This document shows, one piece after another, positions 6,592 through 21,384 of a stretch of DNA of 64,000 nucleotides. Source of the DNA: Thermoplasmata archaeon (lineage in GTDB: Archaea > Thermoplasmatota > Thermoplasmata > UBA10834). The notes beneath the pieces were generated by a model that was given only the letters and a program-made list of their open reading frames with translations, searched no databases and had not been told where the DNA came from. The stretch is taken from contig DATKWQ010000040.1 of NCBI GenBank assembly GCA_035529455.1, positions 34,071 to 98,070 of the forward strand, given 5' to 3'. Position numbers and translations under genes: made by a program. The number at the start of each line of letters is the position of its first letter. Within the stretch, counting starts at the first letter, position 1.

Positions 6592-8736
6592 TCAACCTCG
6601 ACGGAGCCGTTCTATCATGAATGCCAATCGGAGTGCATTGTACTCGATAGCCTCGTACCTTGCGGACGCACCGTGATGCCCTTGTGTCATGTTCGTTCGC
6701 AGCAGTATCATGCTGTCCCCCACGCCGCAGTCTCTGAGCCTCGCGACCCATTTGACAGGCTCCCAGAACGGCACTCTAGGATCGTTCATTCCCGATGTGA
6801 CCAGCATATCTGGGTACTCGACCGCTTCGACGTTCTCATAAGGCGAGTATGATTTGCAGTACGAGTAGACTTCGGGCTCGTTTATGTCCCCATATTCCTC
6901 GTACTCCCCTGTCACCAATGGTATGCTCTGGTCTATCATCGTGTGAACGACATCCACGAAGGGAACCTCAGCGACGACTGCGCTGAACAGCTCTGGTCTC
7001 ATCGTCGTGGCGGCCGCCACCAGGAGCCCTCCCGCACTCGCTCCGTTTATCGCCAACAGCTCGCTCGATGTGTACCCTTCGGCGATGAGATGCTCCGCAC
7101 ATCTTATGAAATCCGTGAAGCAGTTCTTCTTGTTCAGCATCCTGCCGTTGTCGTACCATGACTGCCCGTACTCTCCCCCTCCGCGTATGCCGGCGACGGC
7201 GTAGACGAACCCCCTCTCAAGGAGGCTCAGGATCCCAGTGTCGAACACGGGCGCAGAGCCTTCGAAGTCTCCGGCAGCGCCATACGCATAGAGCAGCAGC
7301 GGGTTCTTCCCGTTCTTTTCGATGCCATTCTTGTGCACGATGTTCACAGGCACCTTCGCGCCGTCGGCGACCGTCACGTGTACTCTCTCCACATGATAGT
7401 CTGAGCGGTCGTATCCCGGCACGTCATCCTCCTTCACGAGTCTGAGTGACCTGTTCTTCATGTCATACTCGTAGATACGTTTCGGTGTGAGCATCGATGT
7501 GTAGGCGAATCTCAGCACGCTCGTGTCCGTATCCGGATTCTCCATTGGCATGACGAATCTCAACTTCTCTGGCAGCTCTATCAAGTGAGACTCCTCACTA
7601 TTTCTGTCCAGGACCCTGATTGAGCAGATGCCGTCCTCTCTTTCGAACACAGCGATGTAATCAGCGAACACGTCGATCCAAGGATGTGGGTCGCTTACAT
7701 TGATGATGACGGAGTCTCGGTGAGGGAGCACATCCTCCCAGTTTTCAGGGCGAGATGTCAAGACGGGCGCCCGTACGATCTTGAAGTTGGGGGCGTCGTC
7801 GTTCGTGAGGATGTGGAAATCTCCTTTGTCGTGAAACGCATAGTAGCGAACACCCTTCTTCCTGCGCACGACGGGCTGGAATCTGCCGGTGTCGTCGTCA
7901 GCGCGGAGGAAGTTGACCTCTCCAGTCGTCAGTGTCTGAGCGGTCACGAAAAGGAACTCCTTGGACTTGCTCTTCGTCAAGGACATGTACTCGCAGCCGA
8001 GGTCTGGTTCTTCGTACACGGTTTCGTCCGCTTCTTGTTCCGTTCCGAGAACATGCCTCATTACCCTGTACGGTCTGTGCACGTCGTCATATAGAATGTA
8101 GTATGCCGTCTTGTTGCTGGAGCTCCACTCGAATCCGCCAGTCCCGGTTACCTTGTCCGGGAAGGGCCTCTGAGTCTCGATGTCGATGAATCCTACATCG
8201 TAGTATTCCGCACCAGACGTGTCATTTGAGTACGCAACGAGTCTCTGATCAGGGCTAATCTTGATGGATTCTATGCTGAAGAACTCGTGGCCTTTCGCGA
8301 GCTCGTTCTGGTCGAGCACCGTCTCCTCCTCGCCGTCGTCGCCTTTCCGTCTGCAGTAGATAGGATACGGCTTTCCCTTTGTCGTCCTGTGATAGTACTG
8401 AAATCCGTCCATGGAGACGGGAGGCTCCGAATCCTCTTCCGTCGTCCTTCCTAGCAGCTCATCGTACAATTCCTTCCGGAGCCCCTCCATTGTTCGGACG
8501 ACCGTGTCCGTATGCTCATTCTCCGCGTTGATGTACTCCATGGTGTCGGGGTCGGACCTGTCTCTTATCCAGTGATATTCGTCGGATAGCGAGTCCCCAT
8601 GAATGACGACCTCTTTCGGCTTCTTCTTCGCCTTGGGTGGCTGCGACCGGTCGAGATGTTGAGACATGATGAGGTTGATGACGACTTCGTCCAAAAAGGT
8701 ATGCAGGGAAGGACAAGTGGGGTTGTGCGAATCCAC
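6592..8736 (-). CDS. S9-family serine peptidase (oligopeptidase B / prolyl oligopeptidase-like)
   Basis: 714 aa. N-terminal beta-propeller-like region, C-terminal alpha/beta-hydrolase with GASAGG (GxSxGG nucleophile elbow). Motifs match PtrB/POP. The true start may instead be the internal Met at about 8667. Confidence 0.75.
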   Translation of the reverse strand: MDSHNPTCPSLHTFLDEVVINLIMSQHLDRSQPPKAKKKPKEVVIHGDSLSDEYHWIRDRSDPDTMEYINAENEHTDTVVRTMEGLRKELYDELLGRTTEEDSEPPVSMDGFQYYHRTTKGKPYPIYCRRKGDDGEEETVLDQNELAKGHEFFSIESIKISPDQRLVAYSNDTSGAEYYDVGFIDIETQRPFPDKVTGTGGFEWSSSNKTAYYILYDDVHRPYRVMRHVLGTEQEADETVYEEPDLGCEYMSLTKSKSKEFLFVTAQTLTTGEVNFLRADDDTGRFQPVVRRKKGVRYYAFHDKGDFHILTNDDAPNFKIVRAPVLTSRPENWEDVLPHRDSVIINVSDPHPWIDVFADYIAVFEREDGICSIRVLDRNSEESHLIELPEKLRFVMPMENPDTDTSVLRFAYTSMLTPKRIYEYDMKNRSLRLVKEDDVPGYDRSDYHVERVHVTVADGAKVPVNIVHKNGIEKNGKNPLLLYAYGAAGDFEGSAPVFDTGILSLLERGFVYAVAGIRGGGEYGQSWYDNGRMLNKKNCFTDFIRCAEHLIAEGYTSSELLAINGASAGGLLVAAATTMRPELFSAVVAEVPFVDVVHTMIDQSIPLVTGEYEEYGDINEPEVYSYCKSYSPYENVEAVEYPDMLVTSGMNDPRVPFWEPVKWVARLRDCGVGDSMILLRTNMTQGHHGASARYEAIEYNALRLAFMIERLRRG

Positions 8737-8825
8737 CTGATATCACCTGTCACTCGATCTATGAAATGCGAGCTCAAGGCAGAACTATCTAATACGCTAA
8801 CAGGATGGCGGGCCTAATCGGATAG

Positions 8826-9710
8826 ATGAATATGGTCGACTCGTCGATACTGCTCGCCCTCTGCTCGCTAGTCATCTACGGACTCACCCAAGTCATTGCG
8901 AAAGCAGCGGTGGGGTCCCTTGACTCGACCAGGATGGTCGCGCTCAACTTCCTCGTGTCGATTCCGATATATGTGTTCCTGTTCGTGTGCGCAGTCGTCA
9001 TCTGGGGTGGATATCTTGACAATCTCGAGTACGTGTTTTACGGTTTGATTGGCGCGTCCACGGCGCGAGGTGGGTACTACATCTACCTCGAGGCCCTCGA
9101 GAGGGGCGCGGTGAGCATGGTAGGGAGCATAACCGCGGCGTTCCCCGCGATCACGGCGGTGCTCGCGGTGACGATGCTCGGAGAGCGTCTTGGCGTGGTG
9201 AACAGTATTGGCATAACAATCATCATCTGCAGCATGATCGCCCTATCATTGTTGCAGGGCAGATCGGCGGAGAACGCGGGCCTCAGTCGGATATCGCTTG
9301 TCCTGAGCGTCGTGACGCTGCTGATATGGGGGTTTGGTGGCATATTCATCAAGATGGCACTCGACGGCCTTCCCTTGGTGGGCTACCTCGGGCTGTACGT
9401 CTTCGTTCTTCCCCCGATTGCGTTCGCCTTCCTCCGCCACAAGGGTGCTACCATGCGTGTATTGATACCGAGATGGACGATCCCTGTGATTGGGGCGATA
9501 GTCGTCGCGGAGCTGTGGCAGCTCGGTTATTTCGCGGAGACATCGGCCATATCAGTTGGTGCTGCGTCCGTCGTCTTCCCGCTCATCTCAGCCTACCCAA
9601 TCGTGACAATACTCGGCGCGCGAATCTTCCTGAAAGAGAGTCTCACAAGGCTTGAATGGACTGTCCTCATGACTGTGGTATTCGGGATAGTGCTCACCTC
9701 CATTGCGTGA
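8826..9710 (+). CDS. EamA/DMT-superfamily transporter
   Basis: 294 aa, about 10 TM helices in two repeated halves, typical of the DMT/EamA family. Confidence 0.65.
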   Translation: MNMVDSSILLALCSLVIYGLTQVIAKAAVGSLDSTRMVALNFLVSIPIYVFLFVCAVVIWGGYLDNLEYVFYGLIGASTARGGYYIYLEALERGAVSMVGSITAAFPAITAVLAVTMLGERLGVVNSIGITIIICSMIALSLLQGRSAENAGLSRISLVLSVVTLLIWGFGGIFIKMALDGLPLVGYLGLYVFVLPPIAFAFLRHKGATMRVLIPRWTIPVIGAIVVAELWQLGYFAETSAISVGAASVVFPLISAYPIVTILGARIFLKESLTRLEWTVLMTVVFGIVLTSIA

Positions 9711-15675: not shown

Positions 15676-15717
15676 CCAACGCAGCCACTGTCTGCGAACT
15701 CAAACCCCTTTCCTTTC

Positions 15718-15738
15718 CCGCCCCTATGGCCTTTTCTC
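15718..15738 (+). repeat. Copy 1 of the 21-bp direct repeat CCGCCCCTATGGCCTTTTCTC, preceded by AAACCCCTTTCCTTTC
   Basis: Exact 21-mer. First of 9 copies spread over 15718..21236. Confidence 0.8.
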
Positions 15739-16050
15739 CGGAGAAGACCACGAGTTCTCCTTAGGTTGGTGTTCTCGCCGTCTCAATAGGAGATATAACA
15801 ATACCAGCCCCCCAACAACAGGTCCTGTGCCCAAGGCAAGTTCCAGGTATGTCAGTTCCAAAGGAGTACCTCGCGCCAGCCATGTCATCCAGATCAGGAG
15901 ACCTATCACCACTGAGACTGTCGCAACGACCGCATATATGTCTCGTTCTTGCTGTCCGCCTGTTTTGCAGTATGGACAATACGGCCTATCAAGAGAGATG
16001 TCATTAGAGGGTCTCTTGCACACAGGACATATCACTCCGACTCTGGGCAT
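15724..16050 (-). CDS. Zinc-ribbon (CPVC...CPYC) membrane protein, hypothetical
   Basis: 108 aa. N-terminal CxxC-x16-CxxC, then two TM helices. Its stop codon lies inside repeat copy 1. Confidence 0.4.
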   Translation of the reverse strand: MPRVGVICPVCKRPSNDISLDRPYCPYCKTGGQQERDIYAVVATVSVVIGLLIWMTWLARGTPLELTYLELALGTGPVVGGLVLLYLLLRRREHQPKENSWSSPEKRP

Positions 16051-16112
16051 TTTCGCTCATCTCAGCAGACAAGATAGCGCTTGCTCAACCTTATCGTTTC
16101 TTCGCTGGAATT

Positions 16113-16214
16113 CCGCCCCTATGGCCTTTTCTCAAAAGAATGGACGTGCGGCCGCCGGGCCGCGCACCCTGAGATAGTCAGTCTCCCTTTTTCTGATTTC
16201 AATCAGCGGGGAAT
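16113..16214 (+). repeat. Extended repeat unit A (about 102 bp): the 21-bp repeat plus a conserved extension containing GTGCGGCCGCCGGG
   Basis: Aligns over about 100 bp with units at 18079..18180 and 20845..20937 at roughly 85-90% identity. Contains a 14-nt identity to the 3' acceptor/T-stem end of the tRNA-Gly gene at 21278..21353, and a CTCCCTTTTTCTGATTTCAATCA segment. Confidence 0.8.
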
Positions 16215-16285
16215 CGGCCTAGCCTTGTCCCAAGCCTTATATCTTCATAGATGCTCGAAGAAGCCGGTGTTGCGAGGCGAATCCT

Positions 16286-17284
16286 ATGATGATCGAAGTC
16301 AGCGGAGCACCGGAGATTGATGGCCTTGTATTCAGGCGATTCGAAGACAAATCAGATTATTCGGTGATGTCGTCTGTGGGAAGAAGGAGCTGGGAAGCTG
16401 ATGGAGTCGAGAACATCGAAACCGAGGAGGAGCTGGCAAGTGAATACGATAATCTTCTAAATCGGAATCCGTCATCGGAGGTGATAATCGCCGAAGTCAA
16501 TGGAGATCCCGTGGCGTATGGACGAATTTGGCCCGAACTGGACAGAAACGGCGAGCGAGAGTTCTGGCACATTGCTCATGTCTTGCCTGAATGGCGCAAG
16601 ACGGCATTGCGCCTGACAATTTTTCGATTCAACGAGGCACAGATCCGGTTCATATCGAAGAACCAACCCTGGCCTGGGAAGACCTCTCTTGGGGCATGGG
16701 CTTTGGACGAACCGAATGATTGGAGGGAGATGGTCCTCTCAGAAGGATATTCAACCGTAATGCAATTCTATGAGATGATTCGGCCGAATATCGAGAACAT
16801 ACCGGACAATCCCCTTCCCGAAGGGCTTGGGCTGCGAGCAGCCAAACCTGAACACTACTCAGAGATATGGAATGCGCGGAAAGAAGCCTTGCGAGAGAAG
16901 CCCTGGTTCGTTGAAAGCCGATATGACAGAGAACACTACGAGCTTTGGCTGAACGAACCAACTTTCATGCCTGATCTCTGGCAAGTCGCATGGGACGGCG
17001 ACCGCGTAGTGGGCATGATTGAAAACCATGAACCACTTGAAAACGAAGCTTACGACCGAAAGAGAGGTCATACTCAGATGATATTTGTGTTGCCCGAATG
17101 GCGAAGGCGAGGATTGGCGAAAGCCTTGCTCGCAAAGAGCCTTGTATTGATGCGAGAGAGGGGATTGGAGGAAGCGACTCTGGATGTTGAAACGCGGAAC
17201 ACTTCAGGCGAAATACAGCTCTACGAAGGAATAGGCTATAGGGTCGCTAGGAAGTACGCGCACTACAAGAAAACCATAGAATAG
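16286..17284 (+). CDS. GNAT-family N-acetyltransferase (tandem GNAT-like halves)
   Basis: 332 aa. Two acetyltransferase-like halves; the second carries the R/Q-x-x-G-x-A CoA-binding signature (WRRRGLAKALL). Confidence 0.6.
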   Translation: MMIEVSGAPEIDGLVFRRFEDKSDYSVMSSVGRRSWEADGVENIETEEELASEYDNLLNRNPSSEVIIAEVNGDPVAYGRIWPELDRNGEREFWHIAHVLPEWRKTALRLTIFRFNEAQIRFISKNQPWPGKTSLGAWALDEPNDWREMVLSEGYSTVMQFYEMIRPNIENIPDNPLPEGLGLRAAKPEHYSEIWNARKEALREKPWFVESRYDREHYELWLNEPTFMPDLWQVAWDGDRVVGMIENHEPLENEAYDRKRGHTQMIFVLPEWRRRGLAKALLAKSLVLMRERGLEEATLDVETRNTSGEIQLYEGIGYRVARKYAHYKKTIE

Positions 17285-17318
17285 AGTCGAGACATAGCCA
17301 AGCCCCCTTCTCTTCCTT

Positions 17319-17339
17319 CCGCCCCTATGACCTTTTCTC
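17319..17339 (+). repeat. Copy 3 of the direct repeat (CCGCCCCTATGACCTTTTCTC, 1 mismatch)
   Basis: Lies between the GNAT gene stop (17284) and the stop of the minus-strand gene (17354). Confidence 0.8.
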
Positions 17340-17353
17340 AGGTGGGGAGTGCC

Positions 17354-17992
17354 CTATCGCGTTTCAGAAAATGTCAGCGCGATGCCCAAGACCGATGCCA
17401 ACAGCTCCAGGCACTTGATGGTATGAACATCCAGAAACTTGCCGTCGGTTGTGCCTGAGAGTTCTATCCATCCAAGAAGCGCGCCACCCTTGCCGAGAAT
17501 TCTCACATCGATATAGTCACCCTCTATCGTTCCGTCCAGAGATTTGCGCGAAGACTGCAACATCAACTCCCTGTTGAATGTGCTCTCCTCGTCTTTGCCG
17601 TAGGGATTGTCCTCGACGAGAAACAACCTTGTTAGGCTACTTATCTGTGCGAACGTGTACCGTTCTGGATCTTCACACTGTTCAAGAGTATAGGCGAGTT
17701 GTTTGTGAGCTTCCCATGAAACGTCAGTCAAGCCGGCCATGACCTCATATCTGTACAGCCCGTCAGATCGGCTCCTCAAACCCAGGGTGACCTCCTTGAC
17801 CCAAAAACTGTCTCGGATCACATCGACAGCACTCTGGAGGAACTCAGACATGCTCAATTGCTGGTCTGCAAGAGCGGCAATCAATGAACGCACACAATCG
17901 AGGCGCTCGTTCGCTGGATTGGCGCTATCATACTGATAGTTCAGGCTCATCCTTTTCTTAATCAGCTCAGGATCTATTACCTGGTCTTGCAT
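17354..17992 (-). CDS. Hypothetical protein (possible small ligand-binding/GAF-like fold; uncertain)
   Basis: 212 aa, soluble, no recognised motif. Flanked on both sides by repeat copies. Confidence 0.35.
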   Translation of the reverse strand: MQDQVIDPELIKKRMSLNYQYDSANPANERLDCVRSLIAALADQQLSMSEFLQSAVDVIRDSFWVKEVTLGLRSRSDGLYRYEVMAGLTDVSWEAHKQLAYTLEQCEDPERYTFAQISSLTRLFLVEDNPYGKDEESTFNRELMLQSSRKSLDGTIEGDYIDVRILGKGGALLGWIELSGTTDGKFLDVHTIKCLELLASVLGIALTFSETR

Positions 17993-18078
17993 AGCTAGCC
18001 CAACTCGGCGAAGCGCCTATGTCATTCTTCGCGATGAAGGAGAAATGGACTTCCAATAGATTGTTCTTTCTCTTCCCT

Positions 18079-18180
18079 CCGCCCCTATGGCCTTTTCTCA
18101 AAAGAATGGACGTGCGGCCGCCGGGCCGCGAACCCTGCGACAGCCAGTCTCCCTTTTTCTGATTTCAATCAGCGGGGAAT
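18079..18180 (+). repeat. Extended repeat unit B (about 102 bp), followed by tail element TGACCGGAGCCAAACCCCTTTCC
   Basis: Same architecture as unit A. Contains GTGCGGCCGCCGGG. Confidence 0.8.
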
Positions 18181-18520
18181 TGACCGGAGCCAAACCCCTT
18201 TCCTTTTCGGGTGGGCGATTATCAATCGTGGTATGACCAGATTAGGTCGCTTATGAGCATCGTTGTGCCACGTAGTTCAAGTTGCTGGGGAGAAGGAAAA
18301 GGGGGTTGGATGCGGACCCCAGCGACCTTTGCCAACATTTGATAGCCGTACCACAAAGGACTGTACCCCTCACACCCTAGTGATGGGCAGAGGGGCACAA
18401 AGGCATCCAGCGAGACTGTCGGAAATACAGATGCCCTCGATGGTGAAACACCAAGGAAGTTGGAACATGAAGAAGGAATTCGAGAGTGAATTGGCGAAAG
18501 AGGTCCCCGAGCCGAAGAGA

Positions 18521-18829
18521 ATGAGTAGGGCTTGGTTTCCCTTGGCGCTTTGCGCTGCCCTGGTGGTCAGCGGGGCGTTTGCCGTGACAGGCGCATTGGC
18601 CGACCCAAACGGAAACCAGACAGGCGACCAAGATGGTGAGCCTGACAAGGATCAACTCCAGCTCCAGGACGGTTCGTGCGGCGACGATTGTGACGGAATC
18701 TGTGACAACGACGCAGAGACGCTCGAGACTGTTCTCGGTGAGTGTGAAGACCCTGAGTTCGATTACGGAGAACCAGGGCCTCATACTTCTCAGGTCTACC
18801 AGGTAGGACCTTACGCCAACGCTCCCTGA
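18521..18829 (+). CDS. Small secreted acidic cysteine-rich protein, hypothetical
   Basis: ORF 18263..18829. Likely start is the Met at 18521, giving the signal peptide MSRAWFPLALCAALVVSGAFAVTGALA. The mature part is D/E-rich with a CGDDCDGICDND...GEC motif. Confidence 0.4.
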   Translation: MSRAWFPLALCAALVVSGAFAVTGALADPNGNQTGDQDGEPDKDQLQLQDGSCGDDCDGICDNDAETLETVLGECEDPEFDYGEPGPHTSQVYQVGPYANAP

Positions 18830-18871
18830 ACTTTGGCGACCGAAACCCTTTGTTCTTACAGGAGGGGTTAA

Positions 18872-19159
18872 TTGCCCCTCATCAAACCATTTCGTCTTTT
18901 CGCATTAACGATTCACCTCTGGGTGATGGGTGGTGGAGTCCCTTACGAACATTTATCGTCTTCGAGAAAGGTCTCTTGTCCAATGGGATTCACAGGACTG
19001 CCGCCGCCGCTCACCAATCAAAGGAATAGAAGAACTGACGCTCCTCTGACAAGCGTAGAAGTGGTGTGGTCTGTCAGATTGAAGCGCGTAGCCGCTGTGA
19101 TAGTCCTAATCATCGTTCTGTTCACTTTGCTGCGCCTCCTCTTTGACGCAATTCTTTGA
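18872..19159 (+). CDS. Small hypothetical membrane protein
   Basis: 95 aa with N- and C-terminal hydrophobic segments. Weak support (ORF only). Confidence 0.2.
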   Translation: MPLIKPFRLFALTIHLWVMGGGVPYEHLSSSRKVSCPMGFTGLPPPLTNQRNRRTDAPLTSVEVVWSVRLKRVAAVIVLIIVLFTLLRLLFDAIL

Positions 19160-19269
19160 GATTCCTCCCAGAGACAGAGGATCGGAAACCAAGGCTCTCT
19201 CGGGAAGAGAATGCGTTTTATCGCGCCTTTGGGAGGCAACCGGAAACCAGAGCTAAATCCCTTTCTTCT

Positions 19270-19289
19270 CCGCCCCATGGCCTTTTCTC
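19270..19289 (+). repeat. Copy 5 of the direct repeat (CCGCCCCATGGCCTTTTCTC, 1-nt deletion), fused directly to the tail element GGGGAATTGACCGGAGCTAACCCTTTC
   Basis: Reads like unit B with the roughly 80-bp middle deleted. Confidence 0.75.
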
Positions 19290-19391
19290 AGGGGAATTGA
19301 CCGGAGCTAACCCTTTCATTCTTTATGATGTTGAACGATCTGACAAACGCGCACTAGTCCTCTAAATACCGCGCGCAGAATTGAAGATGAT

Positions 19392-19477
19392 GCCCCGGCC
19401 GTAGAATCGCCGAACGCAACGATCCATCAGATCGTACGGGTATTCACCCGTTGCAGGTTCGACTCCCGCCCGGGGCG
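19392..19477 (+). ncRNA. tRNA-like element (7-bp acceptor stem GCCCCGG/CCGGGGC, canonical T-arm GCAGG-TTCGACT-CCCGC, anticodon-like and variable hairpins, no convincing D-arm); possible pseudo-tRNA or att remnant
   Basis: Hand folding. Perfect 7-bp acceptor pairing; GTTCGACTC matches the GTTCRANYC T-loop consensus; a 5-bp stem with a 7-nt loop (CCATCAG); an extra 6-bp hairpin. 86 nt, no CCA. Not confirmed as a functional tRNA. Confidence 0.25.
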
Positions 19478-19576
19478 CTCACCTTCAGCCATAAAAAGCG
19501 GTTCTAGGCTATATCTATCTTTTCAGGAGAAATCGCGCTTTGATAATGTCTGCTGGCTCTGGGATAGCCAAGGATT

Positions 19577-19596
19577 CGCCCCTATGGCCTTTTCTC
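19577..19596 (+). repeat. Copy 6 of the direct repeat (CGCCCCTATGGCCTTTTCTC)
   Basis: Immediately downstream of the stop of the minus-strand gene 19605..20324. Confidence 0.8.
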
Positions 19597-19604
19597 AAAT
19601 TGAG

Positions 19605-20324
19605 TCACGCCGAAGACTTCACTCCCTGCTGCATTCGTCGCGCGACCATGAATAGGACAATGGACACACACACCCAAGCGACTAAGCGTAGATCGTCAGC
19701 TAAGCCTTGAAGTCTCAGCCATCCTTCCGTGTCTAGGTCCGTTTGTACTTCCATGAAGAATAGACGCAGGCCAAATGCTGTTGTTACACAGGCAAGTGAG
19801 AGGATAATCAAGAGTCTAATGCGTGAGAGTGAAAGATGGGCCAGGCATACGGGTTTCATGCCAAATCTCTGTTTCATCAGACTGCCATGGACCAACAACA
19901 AGATTGCCAGGACAACGCATATTTCGCCAATCAGCATAGAATAGAGGTAAGCTTTTCCGAGATGGTTCATCAGGGTTATGTCGTCAGAATCACGAGAATC
20001 CCAAGGGTTTGTGAAATGATCGATGGTTAGTTCATTGTAGTAGACGCAAAATGCGAGAGCCATAACAAAAAGCACGACGCCAGCAAGAGCTACGATTGTC
20101 GCTGCTGTGTATTGGCTAAGTCCTATTGGTCTTCTCGGGGCTTGCGCCTGAATTGAGGAGAGATGTCCATTGGGGGCGGTAAGAACAGAGCTCATCTCCT
20201 CTCCGTTGCTCTGAGAAGAAGCATGCGGTTCTCTTAGACTCTCACCGCATTGCCCGCAGTATACGATATGTTCAGGATTCTCGTGTCCACAATTCGCGCA
20301 CTCACGCACCATTTCCTCAACCAC
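19605..20324 (-). CDS. Zinc-ribbon membrane protein (N-terminal CANCGHEN...CGQCG; 5-6 TM), hypothetical
   Basis: 239 aa. CxxC-x10-CxxC N-terminus followed by multiple TM helices. Same overall architecture as 15724..16050. Confidence 0.4.
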   Translation of the reverse strand: MVEEMVRECANCGHENPEHIVYCGQCGESLREPHASSQSNGEEMSSVLTAPNGHLSSIQAQAPRRPIGLSQYTAATIVALAGVVLFVMALAFCVYYNELTIDHFTNPWDSRDSDDITLMNHLGKAYLYSMLIGEICVVLAILLLVHGSLMKQRFGMKPVCLAHLSLSRIRLLIILSLACVTTAFGLRLFFMEVQTDLDTEGWLRLQGLADDLRLVAWVCVSIVLFMVARRMQQGVKSSA

Positions 20325-20338
20325 CGTGTAATAACCGT

Positions 20339-20359
20339 CCGCCCCTATGACCTTTTCTC
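20339..20359 (+). repeat. Copy 7 of the direct repeat (CCGCCCCTATGACCTTTTCTC)
   Basis: Between the start of 19605..20324 and the stop of 20381..20737. Confidence 0.8.
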
Positions 20360-20380
20360 AGGGCACTTGTGAGTATTGCC

Positions 20381-20737
20381 TCAGATTAGGTCTAGTTTCC
20401 TGCCAGCAATGATGTATGCAGCTAATCCCACGCATGTCGCAATCGATACCGCACCCGCAGTGTACCAGCCAAGCATTTCTTGGCTAGCGAGTCCAAGAGC
20501 CCAAATCGCCGCAAAGCATAACGCTCCTACGAATGGAAACAAGATAAACCATGACAAATCAAGAAGACGTTCCTTCACCGAGCCTTCCCCCCCGAAAGGA
20601 GCGCCTGAGGAAAACCACCTCGAGCCTTCCTTCTCGGAGACATATGGCGGTTCCACTTGGCTGATATTTGAGGCTGTGTGGAATCGTGACCCAATTCGGT
20701 CGGTTCTCTTCTGGGGGTTACTCTGAATAGTCGGCAT
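20381..20737 (-). CDS. Small membrane protein, hypothetical
   Basis: 118 aa, 2-3 TM helices. ORF-only support. Confidence 0.3.
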   Translation of the reverse strand: MPTIQSNPQKRTDRIGSRFHTASNISQVEPPYVSEKEGSRWFSSGAPFGGEGSVKERLLDLSWFILFPFVGALCFAAIWALGLASQEMLGWYTAGAVSIATCVGLAAYIIAGRKLDLI

Positions 20738-20844
20738 CTCTACATCACCGGATAGCCATTTCCTAGCGACGCCATTGGCTCACCCGCGTGACTACTATTC
20801 AAGTGCGCTGATGAAGTACCTTTCTATGGTCTTCCCATCCACTT

Positions 20845-20937
20845 CCGCCCCTATGGCCTTTTCTCTGAGAAATGGACGTGCGGCCGCCGGGCTGCGGACC
20901 CTGCGTCAGCCAGACTCCCTTTTTCTGATTTCAATCA
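20845..20937 (+). repeat. Extended repeat unit C (about 93 bp)
   Basis: Aligns with units A and B. Contains GTGCGGCCGCCGGG and CTCCCTTTTTCTGATTTCAATCA. Confidence 0.8.
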
Positions 20938-21001
20938 AGTGGCATTTCTGCCTGGGAATCCAAGGCAAGAGCTATAACGCTGAGGGCTTCTTTCGCTGTC
21001 A

Positions 21002-21208
21002 ATGACTGTCATTGCATCCTCCAGAGTCTCTAGCGAGGATCATCCTCGGATTCGCCAGAAACCCAAGAAGCACGGAGTGCCTCGGGTTGGATCGTGGGAG
21101 AATGTGACGAAAGCGAGCAGACTCTCGAAGCCAATGTCGTGGAAAGCCTGGATTATCATATTCACGCTGATTCTGCTGATAGTCTTCATCCTGAGTTGGC
21201 TTGCCTGA
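21002..21208 (+). CDS. Very small membrane protein, hypothetical
   Basis: 68 aa with a C-terminal TM helix. Weak. Confidence 0.2.
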   Translation: MTVIASSRVSSEDHPRIRQKPKKHGVPRVGSWENVTKASRLSKPMSWKAWIIIFTLILLIVFILSWLA

Positions 21209-21217
21209 TCCCCCCTT

Positions 21218-21236
21218 GGCCCTATGGCCTTTTCCC
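21218..21236 (+). repeat. Degenerate copy 9 of the direct repeat (GGCCCTATGGCCTTTTCCC), about 40 bp beyond the tRNA-Gly 3' end
   Basis: About 17/19 match to the core repeat. Closest copy to the tRNA. Confidence 0.6.
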
Positions 21237-21277
21237 CCTTGATTGACTGAAAAGACGACCTTGCTGGGTATGTTCAG

Positions 21278-21353
21278 TGGTGCGGCCGCCGGGATTTGAA
21301 CCCGAGTTCTGAGCTTGGCAAGCTCAAGTGATAACCAGCTACACTACAGCCGC
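21278..21353 (-). tRNA. tRNA-Gly (anticodon GCC), CCA encoded
   Basis: Minus-strand sequence GCGGCUGUAGUGUAGCUGGUUAUCACUUGAGCUUGCCAAGCUCAGAACUCGGGUUCAAAUCCCGGCGGCCGCACCA. 7-bp acceptor stem; anticodon stem UGAGC/GCUCA with loop UUGCCAA; T-arm UCGGG-UUCAAAU-CCCGG. 76 nt. Confidence 0.85.
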
Positions 21354-21384
21354 ATGCTGCAGAGGTTCAACACCGGTTTGCCAT

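Follow-up and report, generated by a model that had tools for sequence, protein, structure and literature searches.

Downstream of a tRNA-Gly gene of a Thermoplasmata archaeon, short genes of mixed orientation alternate with direct copies of a 21-nt motif. The question raised by this locus is what these repeats are, and a preliminary description had left the choice between tandem att duplicates, an integron-like cassette array with a non-canonical site, and a family of terminator or insulator elements. The evidence from the window, which is the whole 64-kb stretch of DNA analysed, and from motif-bearing DNA fetched from other genomes makes it rather probable that the island consists of eight mobile gene cassettes, each bounded by a 23-bp recombination site, tTCCGCCCCTATGGCCTTTTCTCa, and anchored downstream of tRNA-Gly.

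The repeat series at tRNA-Gly

A search of the window for the 21-mer with up to three mismatches returned seven copies, all on the plus strand, starting at 15718, 16113, 17319, 18079, 19576, 20339 and 20845, while zero copies are expected from 100 shuffles. Over its remaining 58 kb, which hold housekeeping genes, the window has no copy with up to three mismatches. Copies 1 (15718–15738, the left end of the array), 2 (16113–16133), 4 (18079–18099) and 8 (20845–20865) are exact, and copies 3 (17319–17339), 6 (19576–19596) and 7 (20339–20359) have one mismatch each. Two degenerate plus-strand copies, copy 5 at 19270–19289 with a 1-nt deletion (CCGCCCCATGGCCTTTTCTC) and the tRNA-proximal copy 9 at 21216–21236 with four mismatches, bring the series to nine co-oriented copies, which span 15718–21236 and bound eight modules. 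The end of copy 9 is 42 nt from the 3′ end of the array anchor, tRNA-Gly(GCC) (21278–21353, minus strand).

The repeat series of the preliminary description is therefore real, with nine co-oriented copies against none expected by shuffling, although two of its starts move in register, from 19577 to 19576 and from 21218 to 21216. The 21-mer recurs as described, but the conserved unit is 23–24 nt long (tT + 21-mer + a). The spacing of 307–1206 bp with ORFs in between rules out a CRISPR array, with its regular 25–50-nt repeats and similarly short spacers, as had already been argued.

Cassettes and long modules of the island

A gene had been described in every gap; there are indeed eight modules, but that at 19290–19575 has no ORF and that at 18100–19269 has two. 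Cassette 1 encodes, on the minus strand (15724–16050), a protein of 108 aa with a zinc-ribbon N-terminus and membrane segments; the stop codon of this ORF falls within motif copy 1. Cassette 2 carries a GNAT acetyltransferase of 332 aa (16286–17284, plus strand) and cassette 3 a protein of 212 aa without a Pfam family (17354–17992, minus strand). The first ORF of cassette 4 (18263–18829, plus strand) yields 188 aa from a TTG or 120 aa from the ATG at 18467; its product is signal-peptide-like and rich in Cys and Asp, and its DNA is 82% identical to locus L090, where the homology stops at a motif. The second ORF (18872–19159, plus strand; 95 aa) has a hydrophobic C-terminus. Inside the ORF-less cassette lies a tRNA-like relic composed of an acceptor stem and a T arm (19393–19480, plus strand).

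The zinc-ribbon membrane protein of cassette 6 (19605–20324, minus strand; 239 aa) belongs to the commonest cassette family, with 21 members in the fetched loci. Cassette 7, which encodes a membrane protein of 118 aa (20381–20737, minus strand), is 76–78% identical to motif-bounded cassettes of L029 and L163, and cassette 8, whose product of 68 aa has a C-terminal membrane anchor (21002–21208, plus strand), is 77–78% identical to L011 and L065.

Three of the motif copies are parts of a 108-nt repeat (16112–16219, 18078–18185 and 20844–20951) that holds a decayed 3′ part of tRNA-Gly. Long module 1 (16134–16219, plus strand) is composed of a spacer, the tRNA-Gly part in minus-strand sense and the AT-rich sequence CCCTTTTTCTGATTTCAATCAG; long module 2 (18100–18209, plus strand) continues into the recurrent element GGGGAATTGACCGGAGCCAAACCCCTTTC, and long module 3 (20866–20951, plus strand) is the third long copy. 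The tRNA-Gly fragments share the trailer found downstream of real tRNA-Gly genes. Since the decayed module is present in at least six genomes, it travels within cassettes and was not formed in place. All 11 full-length long modules with a downstream ORF have that ORF on the same strand, 9–263 nt on. Judged from this arrangement, the decayed tRNA-Gly part in the long copies probably acts as a portable promoter, in long module 1 for the plus-strand gene downstream.

Architecture and distribution of the motif

The genome scan found 101 motif-bearing stretches, which belong to 16 or more Thermoplasmata MAG species; two motif-bearing contigs come from a bin labelled Thorarchaeota. The fetched DNA holds about 280 copies in total, mostly intergenic (only 24 of 279 lie inside ORFs of at least 150 aa), in co-oriented arrays of up to 17 copies. 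Within an array the orientation of the motif is constant, whatever that of the genes. Occurrence at most intergenic regions had been named as the sign of a generic terminator or REP-like element; the motif is dispersed over many species, but it is concentrated in arrays and absent from most intergenic regions, with tens of copies per genome (22–44 in the fetched blocks of three complete chromosomes).

Conservation is restricted to 23–24 nt, with both flanks at background across 268 copies; retrieval of the loci through exact matches to the motif makes its internal conservation look stronger than it is. The consensus of these copies, TTCCGCCCCTATGGCCTTTTCTCA, inspected by eye, has no dyad symmetry, which core sites of tyrosine and serine recombinases usually have. 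The plus strand of the motif holds a T4 tract. The motif has no evident hairpin partner or terminal inverted repeat, and the flanks pair with it no more strongly than shuffled flanks do (left, −10.5 against −9.8 to −10.2 kcal/mol; right, −12.2 against −12.3 to −12.5 kcal/mol).

The 196 segments between motifs are 556 bp long in the median, and 110 of them hold a single ORF; units range from 200 to 3500 bp and lack element backbones. Their composition and gene content are distinct: GC is 50.8% in cassettes and 55.6% elsewhere, and 62% of cassette ORFs contain a membrane-like segment, compared with 24% elsewhere. Among single-ORF cassettes, 71 of 110 are read in one sense, a modest bias of 65%, and in the sense-oriented ORFs the median distance from motif to start codon is 58 nt.

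Anchoring at tRNA genes

Arrays often begin 5–160 nt downstream of a tRNA gene. Of the 37 tRNA genes in the fetched loci, 21 are followed by a motif at no more than 200 nt, which in 18 cases reads in the sense of the tRNA. The motif follows nine tRNA species, namely those for Ala (two anticodons), Pro, Gly (two), Val (two), Leu and Ile, and is absent from the tRNA sequence itself. For the 21-mer, this rules out the tandem att duplicates of the preliminary description, a term that fits only the decayed tRNA-Gly fragment in the three long copies. No tRNA gene was found within the 16 kb of fetched sequence holding each of the 17-copy arrays.

Exchange of cassettes between genomes

One case of exchange is cassette 3. 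Positions 17315–18100 of the window are 96.4% identical to contig 6 of SG225.bin4, a different species (L101, 32–817), and the homology stops at both motifs, whereas core genes of the same genome pair are only 65.6–71.2% identical. In twenty matches between species, each of the four ends coincides with a motif. Overall, a motif is found no more than 15 nt from 24.4% of match ends (2.4% expected), and per-base identity drops to about 25% exactly at the motif edges. One clean pair of an empty and an occupied site was found: L059 has a single motif where its counterpart L086 has two, around a gene-bearing insert of 964 bp. The flanks of the pair are 95–98% identical, with an overlap of 23 nt between the two matches; the insertion precisely duplicates the site.

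These comparisons show that motif-bounded cassettes move between genomes. The cassettes common to several species that end at the motif, together with the empty/occupied pair, support the integron-like option of the preliminary description, and a cassette platform of this kind with a non-canonical, linear site is the best reading of the locus. Invariance of the locus across strains had been named as a sign against a variable island, and within the sampled population of the window at least eight contigs from at least seven assemblies do have the identical array. Between species the content differs: at the tRNA-Gly/FolC junction, the window and L064, L072 and L065, from three other species, hold different cassettes. 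Neither a circular contig carrying the motif nor a viral contig was found.

Search for a recombinase

The reported lack of an integrase in the island stands: Pfam detected none among the island ORFs, and phmmer, queried with five archaeal integrases, gave no hit in the set of non-overlapping window ORFs with 60 aa or more. The 1.19 Mb of motif-bearing DNA contain only 13 tyrosine-recombinase ORFs or fragments, of at least two distinct groups, none of them located in the window or in either of the two largest arrays, and no recombinase in this DNA is consistently linked to the arrays. Integrase and backbone genes are sporadic in arrays other than that of the window. The integrases near these other arrays score 21–75 bits on the NCBIfam integron-integrase models, for which the cut-offs are 265 and 435, and an integron-type integrase was not found. 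Only one integrase, in L033, abuts a motif, and its relatives in three other contexts have no motif within 6 kb. The motif is also absent from within the full-length integrases.

Alternative explanations

The motif could instead be an expression or chromatin signal of accessory genes, such as an operator, an insulator or a terminator-like element, with the shuffling being a by-product of ordinary homologous recombination between the short identical copies, without a dedicated recombinase. This explanation, which we consider unlikely, would account for the missing cognate recombinase in the motif-bearing DNA searched, for the asymmetry of the site, for its T4 tract, for the stability of the array within the population, and for the position of the motif, which in one of four sense-oriented cassette ORFs lies at most 32 nt before the start codon. 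It agrees poorly with the single orientation per array irrespective of gene orientation and with only tens of copies per genome, none of them beside the window's 58 kb of housekeeping genes; on these two grounds the terminator/insulator family of the preliminary description is not supported. Moreover, a near-perfect 23 bp without flank conservation exceeds what a terminator or promoter needs, the one insertion found duplicates the site precisely, and RadA-dependent exchange would have only a very short substrate in 23 bp.

Another explanation, and quite an improbable one, is that classical integrase-bearing elements integrated one after another at tRNA-Gly and left the island as their remains, a tycheposon-like accretion in which the repeats are att duplicates and the integrases were lost. 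The displaced tRNA-Gly parts with their genuine trailer point in this direction, as do the three assemblies that break at or within tRNA-Gly and the integrase genes or C-terminal fragments located between the tRNA and the first motif in SG225 (tRNA-Arg), L201 (tRNA-Val) and L033 (tRNA-Leu). However, the one 21-mer, which is not tRNA sequence, serves nine tRNA species, the 17-copy arrays stand without a tRNA in their fetched sequence, the units are mostly single ORFs without element backbones, and the tRNA-Gly module travels with cassettes. As the sole cause, accretion is further contradicted by most arrays having no tRNA-derived sequence at all.

It is very improbable that the repeat is a selfish element of the REP or MITE kind, short and dispersed, which inserts itself between genes and leaves as "cassettes" whatever genes lie between its insertions. 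The motif is indeed dispersed and intergenic, and several species have tens of copies of it, but whole cassettes travel with both motifs into unrelated neighbourhoods, the insertion polymorphism is the 964-bp gene-bearing segment and not a bare repeat, and the flanks do not pair with the motif beyond shuffled ones. No close genome pairs differing by the bare 23-mer alone were seen. REPs and MITEs are usually palindromic or TIR-bearing and occupy a large share of intergenic regions; this form was rejected on the lack of a pairing partner, the 22–44 copies per complete chromosome's fetched blocks and the absence from the window's other 58 kb.

Comparison with known systems

The integron-like platform shares with integrons and CALINs the cassettes of a few hundred bp that mostly hold one ORF and are delimited by sites in one orientation, their occurrence in several species, the small genes of mostly unassigned function with often membrane or secreted products, the many arrays without an adjacent integrase and, presumably, reverse-oriented cassettes with a promoter of their own. 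It differs in its linear, asymmetric and sequence-conserved 23-mer, as attC is an imperfect palindrome of 57–141 nt that is conserved in structure. An attC hairpin site (R″-L″/L′-R′) was tested by pairing energy and rejected, with only the asymmetric 23–24-mer present and flank pairing energies equal to shuffled ones. Neither IntI nor attI was found here, arrays start at tRNA genes with several per genome, and the orientation bias is only about 65%. Integron cassette genes are promoterless, depend on a common promoter and almost all point the same way. Archaeal integrons known to date (Ghaly et al., 2022, PMC9668308) came from searches with attC models and belong to the canonical type.

Tycheposons of Prochlorococcus (bioRxiv 10.1101/2020.12.28.424599) and Islander-type islands likewise occupy the 3′ side of a tRNA gene, contain displaced tRNA fragments, place newer elements between the tRNA and older material and in some islands hold degraded integrase fragments. 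Their repeats are target-specific partial tRNAs and their units are multi-kb elements with replication and integration modules, whereas here one tRNA-independent motif serves all anchors as well as the arrays whose fetched sequence shows no tRNA, and the units are single genes. The Xer-dependent modules, such as pdif of Acinetobacter plasmids and IMEX like the CTX phage, are also gene-sized, with short conserved sites and no recombinase of their own; a host enzyme acts on them in trans, which we propose for the present system as well. Sites of the dif type are 28 bp long, with two inverted 11-bp arms and a 6-bp spacer, and pdif modules are bounded by inverted sites, whereas the site described here lacks dyad symmetry and its copies are direct. 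The "gene capture" by SSV-type integrases (She et al., 2001; PMC7253208, suicidal integrases) is archaeal, tRNA-linked and leaves chromosomal integrase fragments beside repeats, but its att lies inside the integrase gene and is tRNA sequence, while full-length integrases here lack the motif and the repeats are not tRNA.

Proposed mechanism and implications

In the mechanism that we propose for the cassette platform, a putative site-specific recombinase supplied in trans would carry out strand exchange in the motif, probably at CGCCCCTA. From between two direct copies, a cassette would be released as a circle with one site. The circle could then insert at any further copy of the site, whether in that genome or in a different one, with the site being duplicated on insertion. 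Genes in the sense of the motif's reverse complement would have little promoter room, because a quarter of them start within 32 nt of the motif, and would probably depend on read-through transcription that starts upstream, in the end at the tRNA promoter. Cassette genes read in the opposite sense would carry their own promoter, which in this island would be the long module derived from the displaced tRNA-Gly 3′ fragment.

With a confidence that falls a little short of even, we suggest that a sediment Thermoplasmata clade possesses an undescribed, integron-independent system of gene-cassette capture, with a linear 23-bp site, a putative recombinase in trans, arrays seeded at tRNA genes, and exchange of single genes between species. 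If this is true, the seeding of arrays downstream of tRNA genes means that tRNA promoters may drive the expression of the cassettes.

Repeat array beside tRNA-Gly

A search of the window for the 21-mer CCGCCCCTATGGCCTTTTCTC, allowing up to three mismatches, returns seven matches, all on the + strand and within 15718–20865, while shuffled windows and the remaining 58 kb of the window contain none. When the two degenerate copies are included, one with a deleted base (19270–19289) and one with four mismatches (21216–21236), the series comes to nine, and its last copy lies 42 nt from the tRNA-Gly(GCC) gene (21278–21353, − strand). The nine-copy series noted beside this tRNA in the preliminary description is thus real. 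The copies are separated by eight intervals of 285–1185 bp, in which small ORFs are found in both orientations, encoding two zinc-ribbon membrane proteins, a GNAT acetyltransferase, a 212-aa protein without a family, a Cys-rich secreted protein and three small membrane proteins. The view of these intervals as eight gene cassettes holds with one exception, since one of the eight has no ORF.

The GC content of the island is 50–54%, compared with about 55% in its flanks, and the window outside it is ordinary chromosome, with genes for an oligopeptide ABC transporter, FolC, the shikimate pathway, peptidases and Mre11/Rad50-like proteins. The reported lack of an integrase or recombinase in the island agrees with a phmmer search, which detects no tyrosine recombinase among the non-overlapping ORFs of at least 60 aa in the window. 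The tRNA is the sole Rfam match, both in the whole window at the gathering threshold and in the island at E ≤ 1.

The ORF-less cassette contains a tRNA-like relic (19393–19480, + strand) with a 7-bp acceptor stem, a GGTTCGACTCC T-loop and a minimum free energy of −39 kcal/mol (z = −3.0). It is called neither by Rfam nor by ARAGORN at normal thresholds, even with introns allowed, appears as a defective tRNA only at the 80% threshold, and has no homolog in the fetched loci.

Variation at this locus, for which a comparison of related genomes had been proposed, is not seen in the window's own population, where the same array is present, at 99.9–100% identity, in eight contigs or more that come from no fewer than seven assemblies. 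The metagenome loci show no alternative cassette junctions, no excised circles were seen and there is no circular contig among the metagenome matches. Given an identical array in so many contigs, either turnover is slow or sampling is clonal. Three contigs of the same population, each from an independent assembly (L104, L106 and L107), end at or inside tRNA-Gly, at window positions 21281, 21318 and 21320; the cause may be variation of the array within the population or difficulty in assembling repeats.

The motif and its distribution

In 268 copies from related genomes, the conserved unit is 23–24 nt long, tT-CCGCCCCTATGGCCTTTTCTC-a, and both flanks are at background at once; as the loci were fetched by exact matches, conservation within the motif is overstated, while its sharp edges are unaffected. 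The motif sequence has no dyad symmetry, and its duplex energies with the flanks are no better than those with shuffled or reversed flanks, so it is neither a folded attC-type site nor a REP-like palindrome. Two of its frames contain stop codons (TGA and TAG), which terminate, for example, the ORF at 15724–16050.

An exact-match scan with one genome per species recovered 101 stretches, and the repeat is therefore more general than could be seen from the window. The stretches come from 16 Thermoplasmata MAG species, of which three are represented by complete chromosomes (CP070736.1, CP070732.1 and CP070748.1). With mismatches allowed, 296 copies are present in 762 kb of fetched DNA. Among 241 million metagenome records, just 93 motif stretches were found, and 2.9 million viral contigs gave no match; the motif is thus confined to one lineage. 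A virus origin can be rejected on the viral scan and the lack of circular contigs among the metagenome matches. The motif and the long module described below also occur on two short contigs (L021 and L022) of JAEOUG01, a bin labelled Thorarchaeota, which represent either mis-binned Thermoplasmata DNA or a transfer across phyla.

The great majority of copies are intergenic, with 24 of 279 found within ORFs of at least 150 aa, and they are grouped in co-oriented arrays, such as those of 17 copies in 16 kb of CP070736.1 and, likewise, of CP070732.1. The concern that the 21-mer might sit genome-wide in most intergenic regions is borne out in its dispersal over many species but not in its numbers, as the three complete chromosomes carry 22–44 copies each in the fetched blocks, far below the number of their intergenic regions.

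Cassette content

Consecutive co-oriented copies enclose 196 segments, with lengths of 195–3516 bp and a median of 556 bp. A single ORF is present in 110 of them, and in 71 cases it is read in the same direction as the reverse complement of the motif. A quarter of the ORFs in this sense start at most 32 nt from a motif and end at most 14 nt from the next. Cassette DNA has a GC content of 50.8%, versus 55.6% at distances above 1.5 kb from the nearest motif, and a membrane-like hydrophobic segment is found in 62% of cassette ORFs versus 24% of those elsewhere. When 150 ORFs lying no more than 2.5 kb from motifs were screened against Pfam, the recurring families among the best 25 of 155 were zinc-ribbon membrane proteins, clostripain-like peptidases, beta-helix surface proteins, DUF4386, regulators and transporters.

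An element of roughly 30 nt, GGGGAATTGACCGGAGCYAAACCCCTTTC, recurs beside motifs in the window (18174–18205, 19291–19320 and, partially, 15700–15717) and in many fetched loci, including L002, L005, L006, L067 and L078. In L002 it stands alone between two motif copies and resembles a minimal non-coding cassette.

Exchange of cassettes between genomes

The comparative evidence for exchange bounded by the motif is strong. One window cassette with both its motifs (17315–18100) is 96.4% identical to the start of SG225.bin4 contig 6, with the similarity stopping at both motifs; the core genes of the two genomes are 65.6–71.2% identical. Other window cassettes have motif-bounded relatives in other species, at 76–82% identity. 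Over all loci, there are 20 cross-species matches in which each of the four ends coincides with a motif; their identities are 74–96% (median 84%; the median of core matches is 72%), and 24.4% of all match ends lie within 15 nt of a motif, versus 2.4% expected. Between homologous cassettes, per-position identity falls to about 25% exactly at the outer motif edges, left and right.

An empty and an occupied site can be compared in two close genomes: L059 has one motif, and L086 has two that enclose a 964-bp insert with two ORFs. The flanks are 95–98% identical and the two alignments share an overlap of 23 nt; this is the sole such pair in 1.19 Mb. Its variant bases place the exchange inside CGCCCCTA, a localisation from few events, and motif positions −1 and 1 co-vary solely with the left-hand cassette, which agrees with it. 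The same loci differ by a second indel of 1.3 kb (L059 3759–3819 versus L086 1910–3238), which has a repeat of some 60 nt instead of the motif at its boundaries and is probably another kind of mobile element.

tRNA anchoring and the long copies

In the fetched loci, a motif lies within 200 nt downstream of the 3′ end of 21 of 37 tRNA genes, in 18 of the 21 in the tRNA sense. The anchors are tRNAs for Ala (two anticodons), Pro, Gly (two), Val (two), Leu and Ile, and the three with the motif in the opposite orientation are all tRNA-Val(GAC) (L014/L031, L128 and L203). At the junction between FolC and tRNA-Gly, the window and three other species (L064, L072 and L065) have different cassettes. The motif is not tRNA sequence and hence not a tRNA-derived att site, which removes, for the 21-mer itself, the proposal that the repeats are att duplicates derived from the tRNA.

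Three copies in the island belong to 108-nt repeats (16112–16219, 18078–18185 and 20844–20951), which align with genuine tRNA-Gly(GCC) genes of two other species through the anticodon arm, the T arm, the acceptor strand, the same 12–14-nt trailer and the motif, in this order. Judged from this alignment, the 108-nt repeat is a decayed 3′ part of tRNA-Gly that was displaced along with the motif originally downstream of it, a combination that is the signature of classical integration into tRNA-Gly. The same decayed version is found in at least six genomes, so the module now moves with cassettes, forming their motif-proximal end. Each of the 11 full-length modules with a downstream ORF has one on the module strand 9–263 nt later, in the orientation opposite to most cassette genes, and the AT-rich module end TTTTTCTGATTTCAATCA probably acts as a portable promoter for reverse-oriented cassettes.

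Search for a recombinase

The 1.19 Mb of motif-bearing DNA contains 13 tyrosine-recombinase ORFs or fragments of at least two distinct groups, all under the XerA cut-offs and far under those of integron integrases. Several occupy the stretch that separates a tRNA from the first motif, a position consistent with insertion of classical tRNA-targeting elements at these same anchors. C-terminal fragments with truncated 5′ ends 8–71 nt from a motif occur in L053 (2007–2246), L093 (4776–5336) and, adjoining tRNA-Arg, L027 (6988–7407); their full-length relatives have no motif within the gene.

The integrase in L033 abuts a motif and was considered as the cognate enzyme, but it belongs to a large family, three other members of which have no motif within 6 kb, and it was rejected because it is not linked to the motif. 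A recombinase or transposase recurring near the arrays was also rejected, with two Phage_integrase members and no transposase among the best 25 of 155 families in the 150 screened ORFs. In L209, two TIR-domain genes (CAP12-PCTIR_TIR and TIR_2) lie downstream of an L033-type integrase, which adjoins M24 peptidase and Sua5 genes resembling the upstream neighbours of tRNA-Leu in L033; this region (7470–9447) has no motif and looks like a defence island.

A cognate recombinase was not identified in the motif-bearing DNA, which speaks for exchange by homologous recombination between motif copies that are conserved for some other function, an explanation that we regard as unlikely.

Relation to known systems

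The best reading of the arrays is an integron-like cassette platform that has a non-canonical site and extends across the lineage, one of the options of the preliminary description. Functionally, integrons and CALINs are the nearest system, with which the arrays have in common the size and content of cassettes, co-oriented sites, sharing across species and arrays without an integrase; however, the two molecular features that define that system, attC and IntI, were tested here and not found. Xer-dependent modules, which have symmetric sites, share the idea of an enzyme acting in trans, but the motif here is without symmetry. Tycheposon-like tRNA-anchored accretion islands share the anchor and the displaced tRNA fragments, but their own repeats consist of partial tRNAs, and each unit is a whole element (bioRxiv 10.1101/2020.12.28.424599). 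The archaeal integrons described so far are canonical attC/IntI systems (PMC9668308).

Literature searches for the motif sequence, the genome accessions and such arrays in Thermoplasmata found no paper. To our knowledge, integrons are the sole well-understood platform that captures and shuffles single genes. A second one, with a different type of site and anchor, would, if true, demonstrate more than one evolutionary origin of cassette capture. Such a platform would also imply a new site-specific recombinase whose 23-bp target is short and defined, a possible genetic tool, and would explain the renewal of surface and membrane proteins in streamlined sediment archaea.
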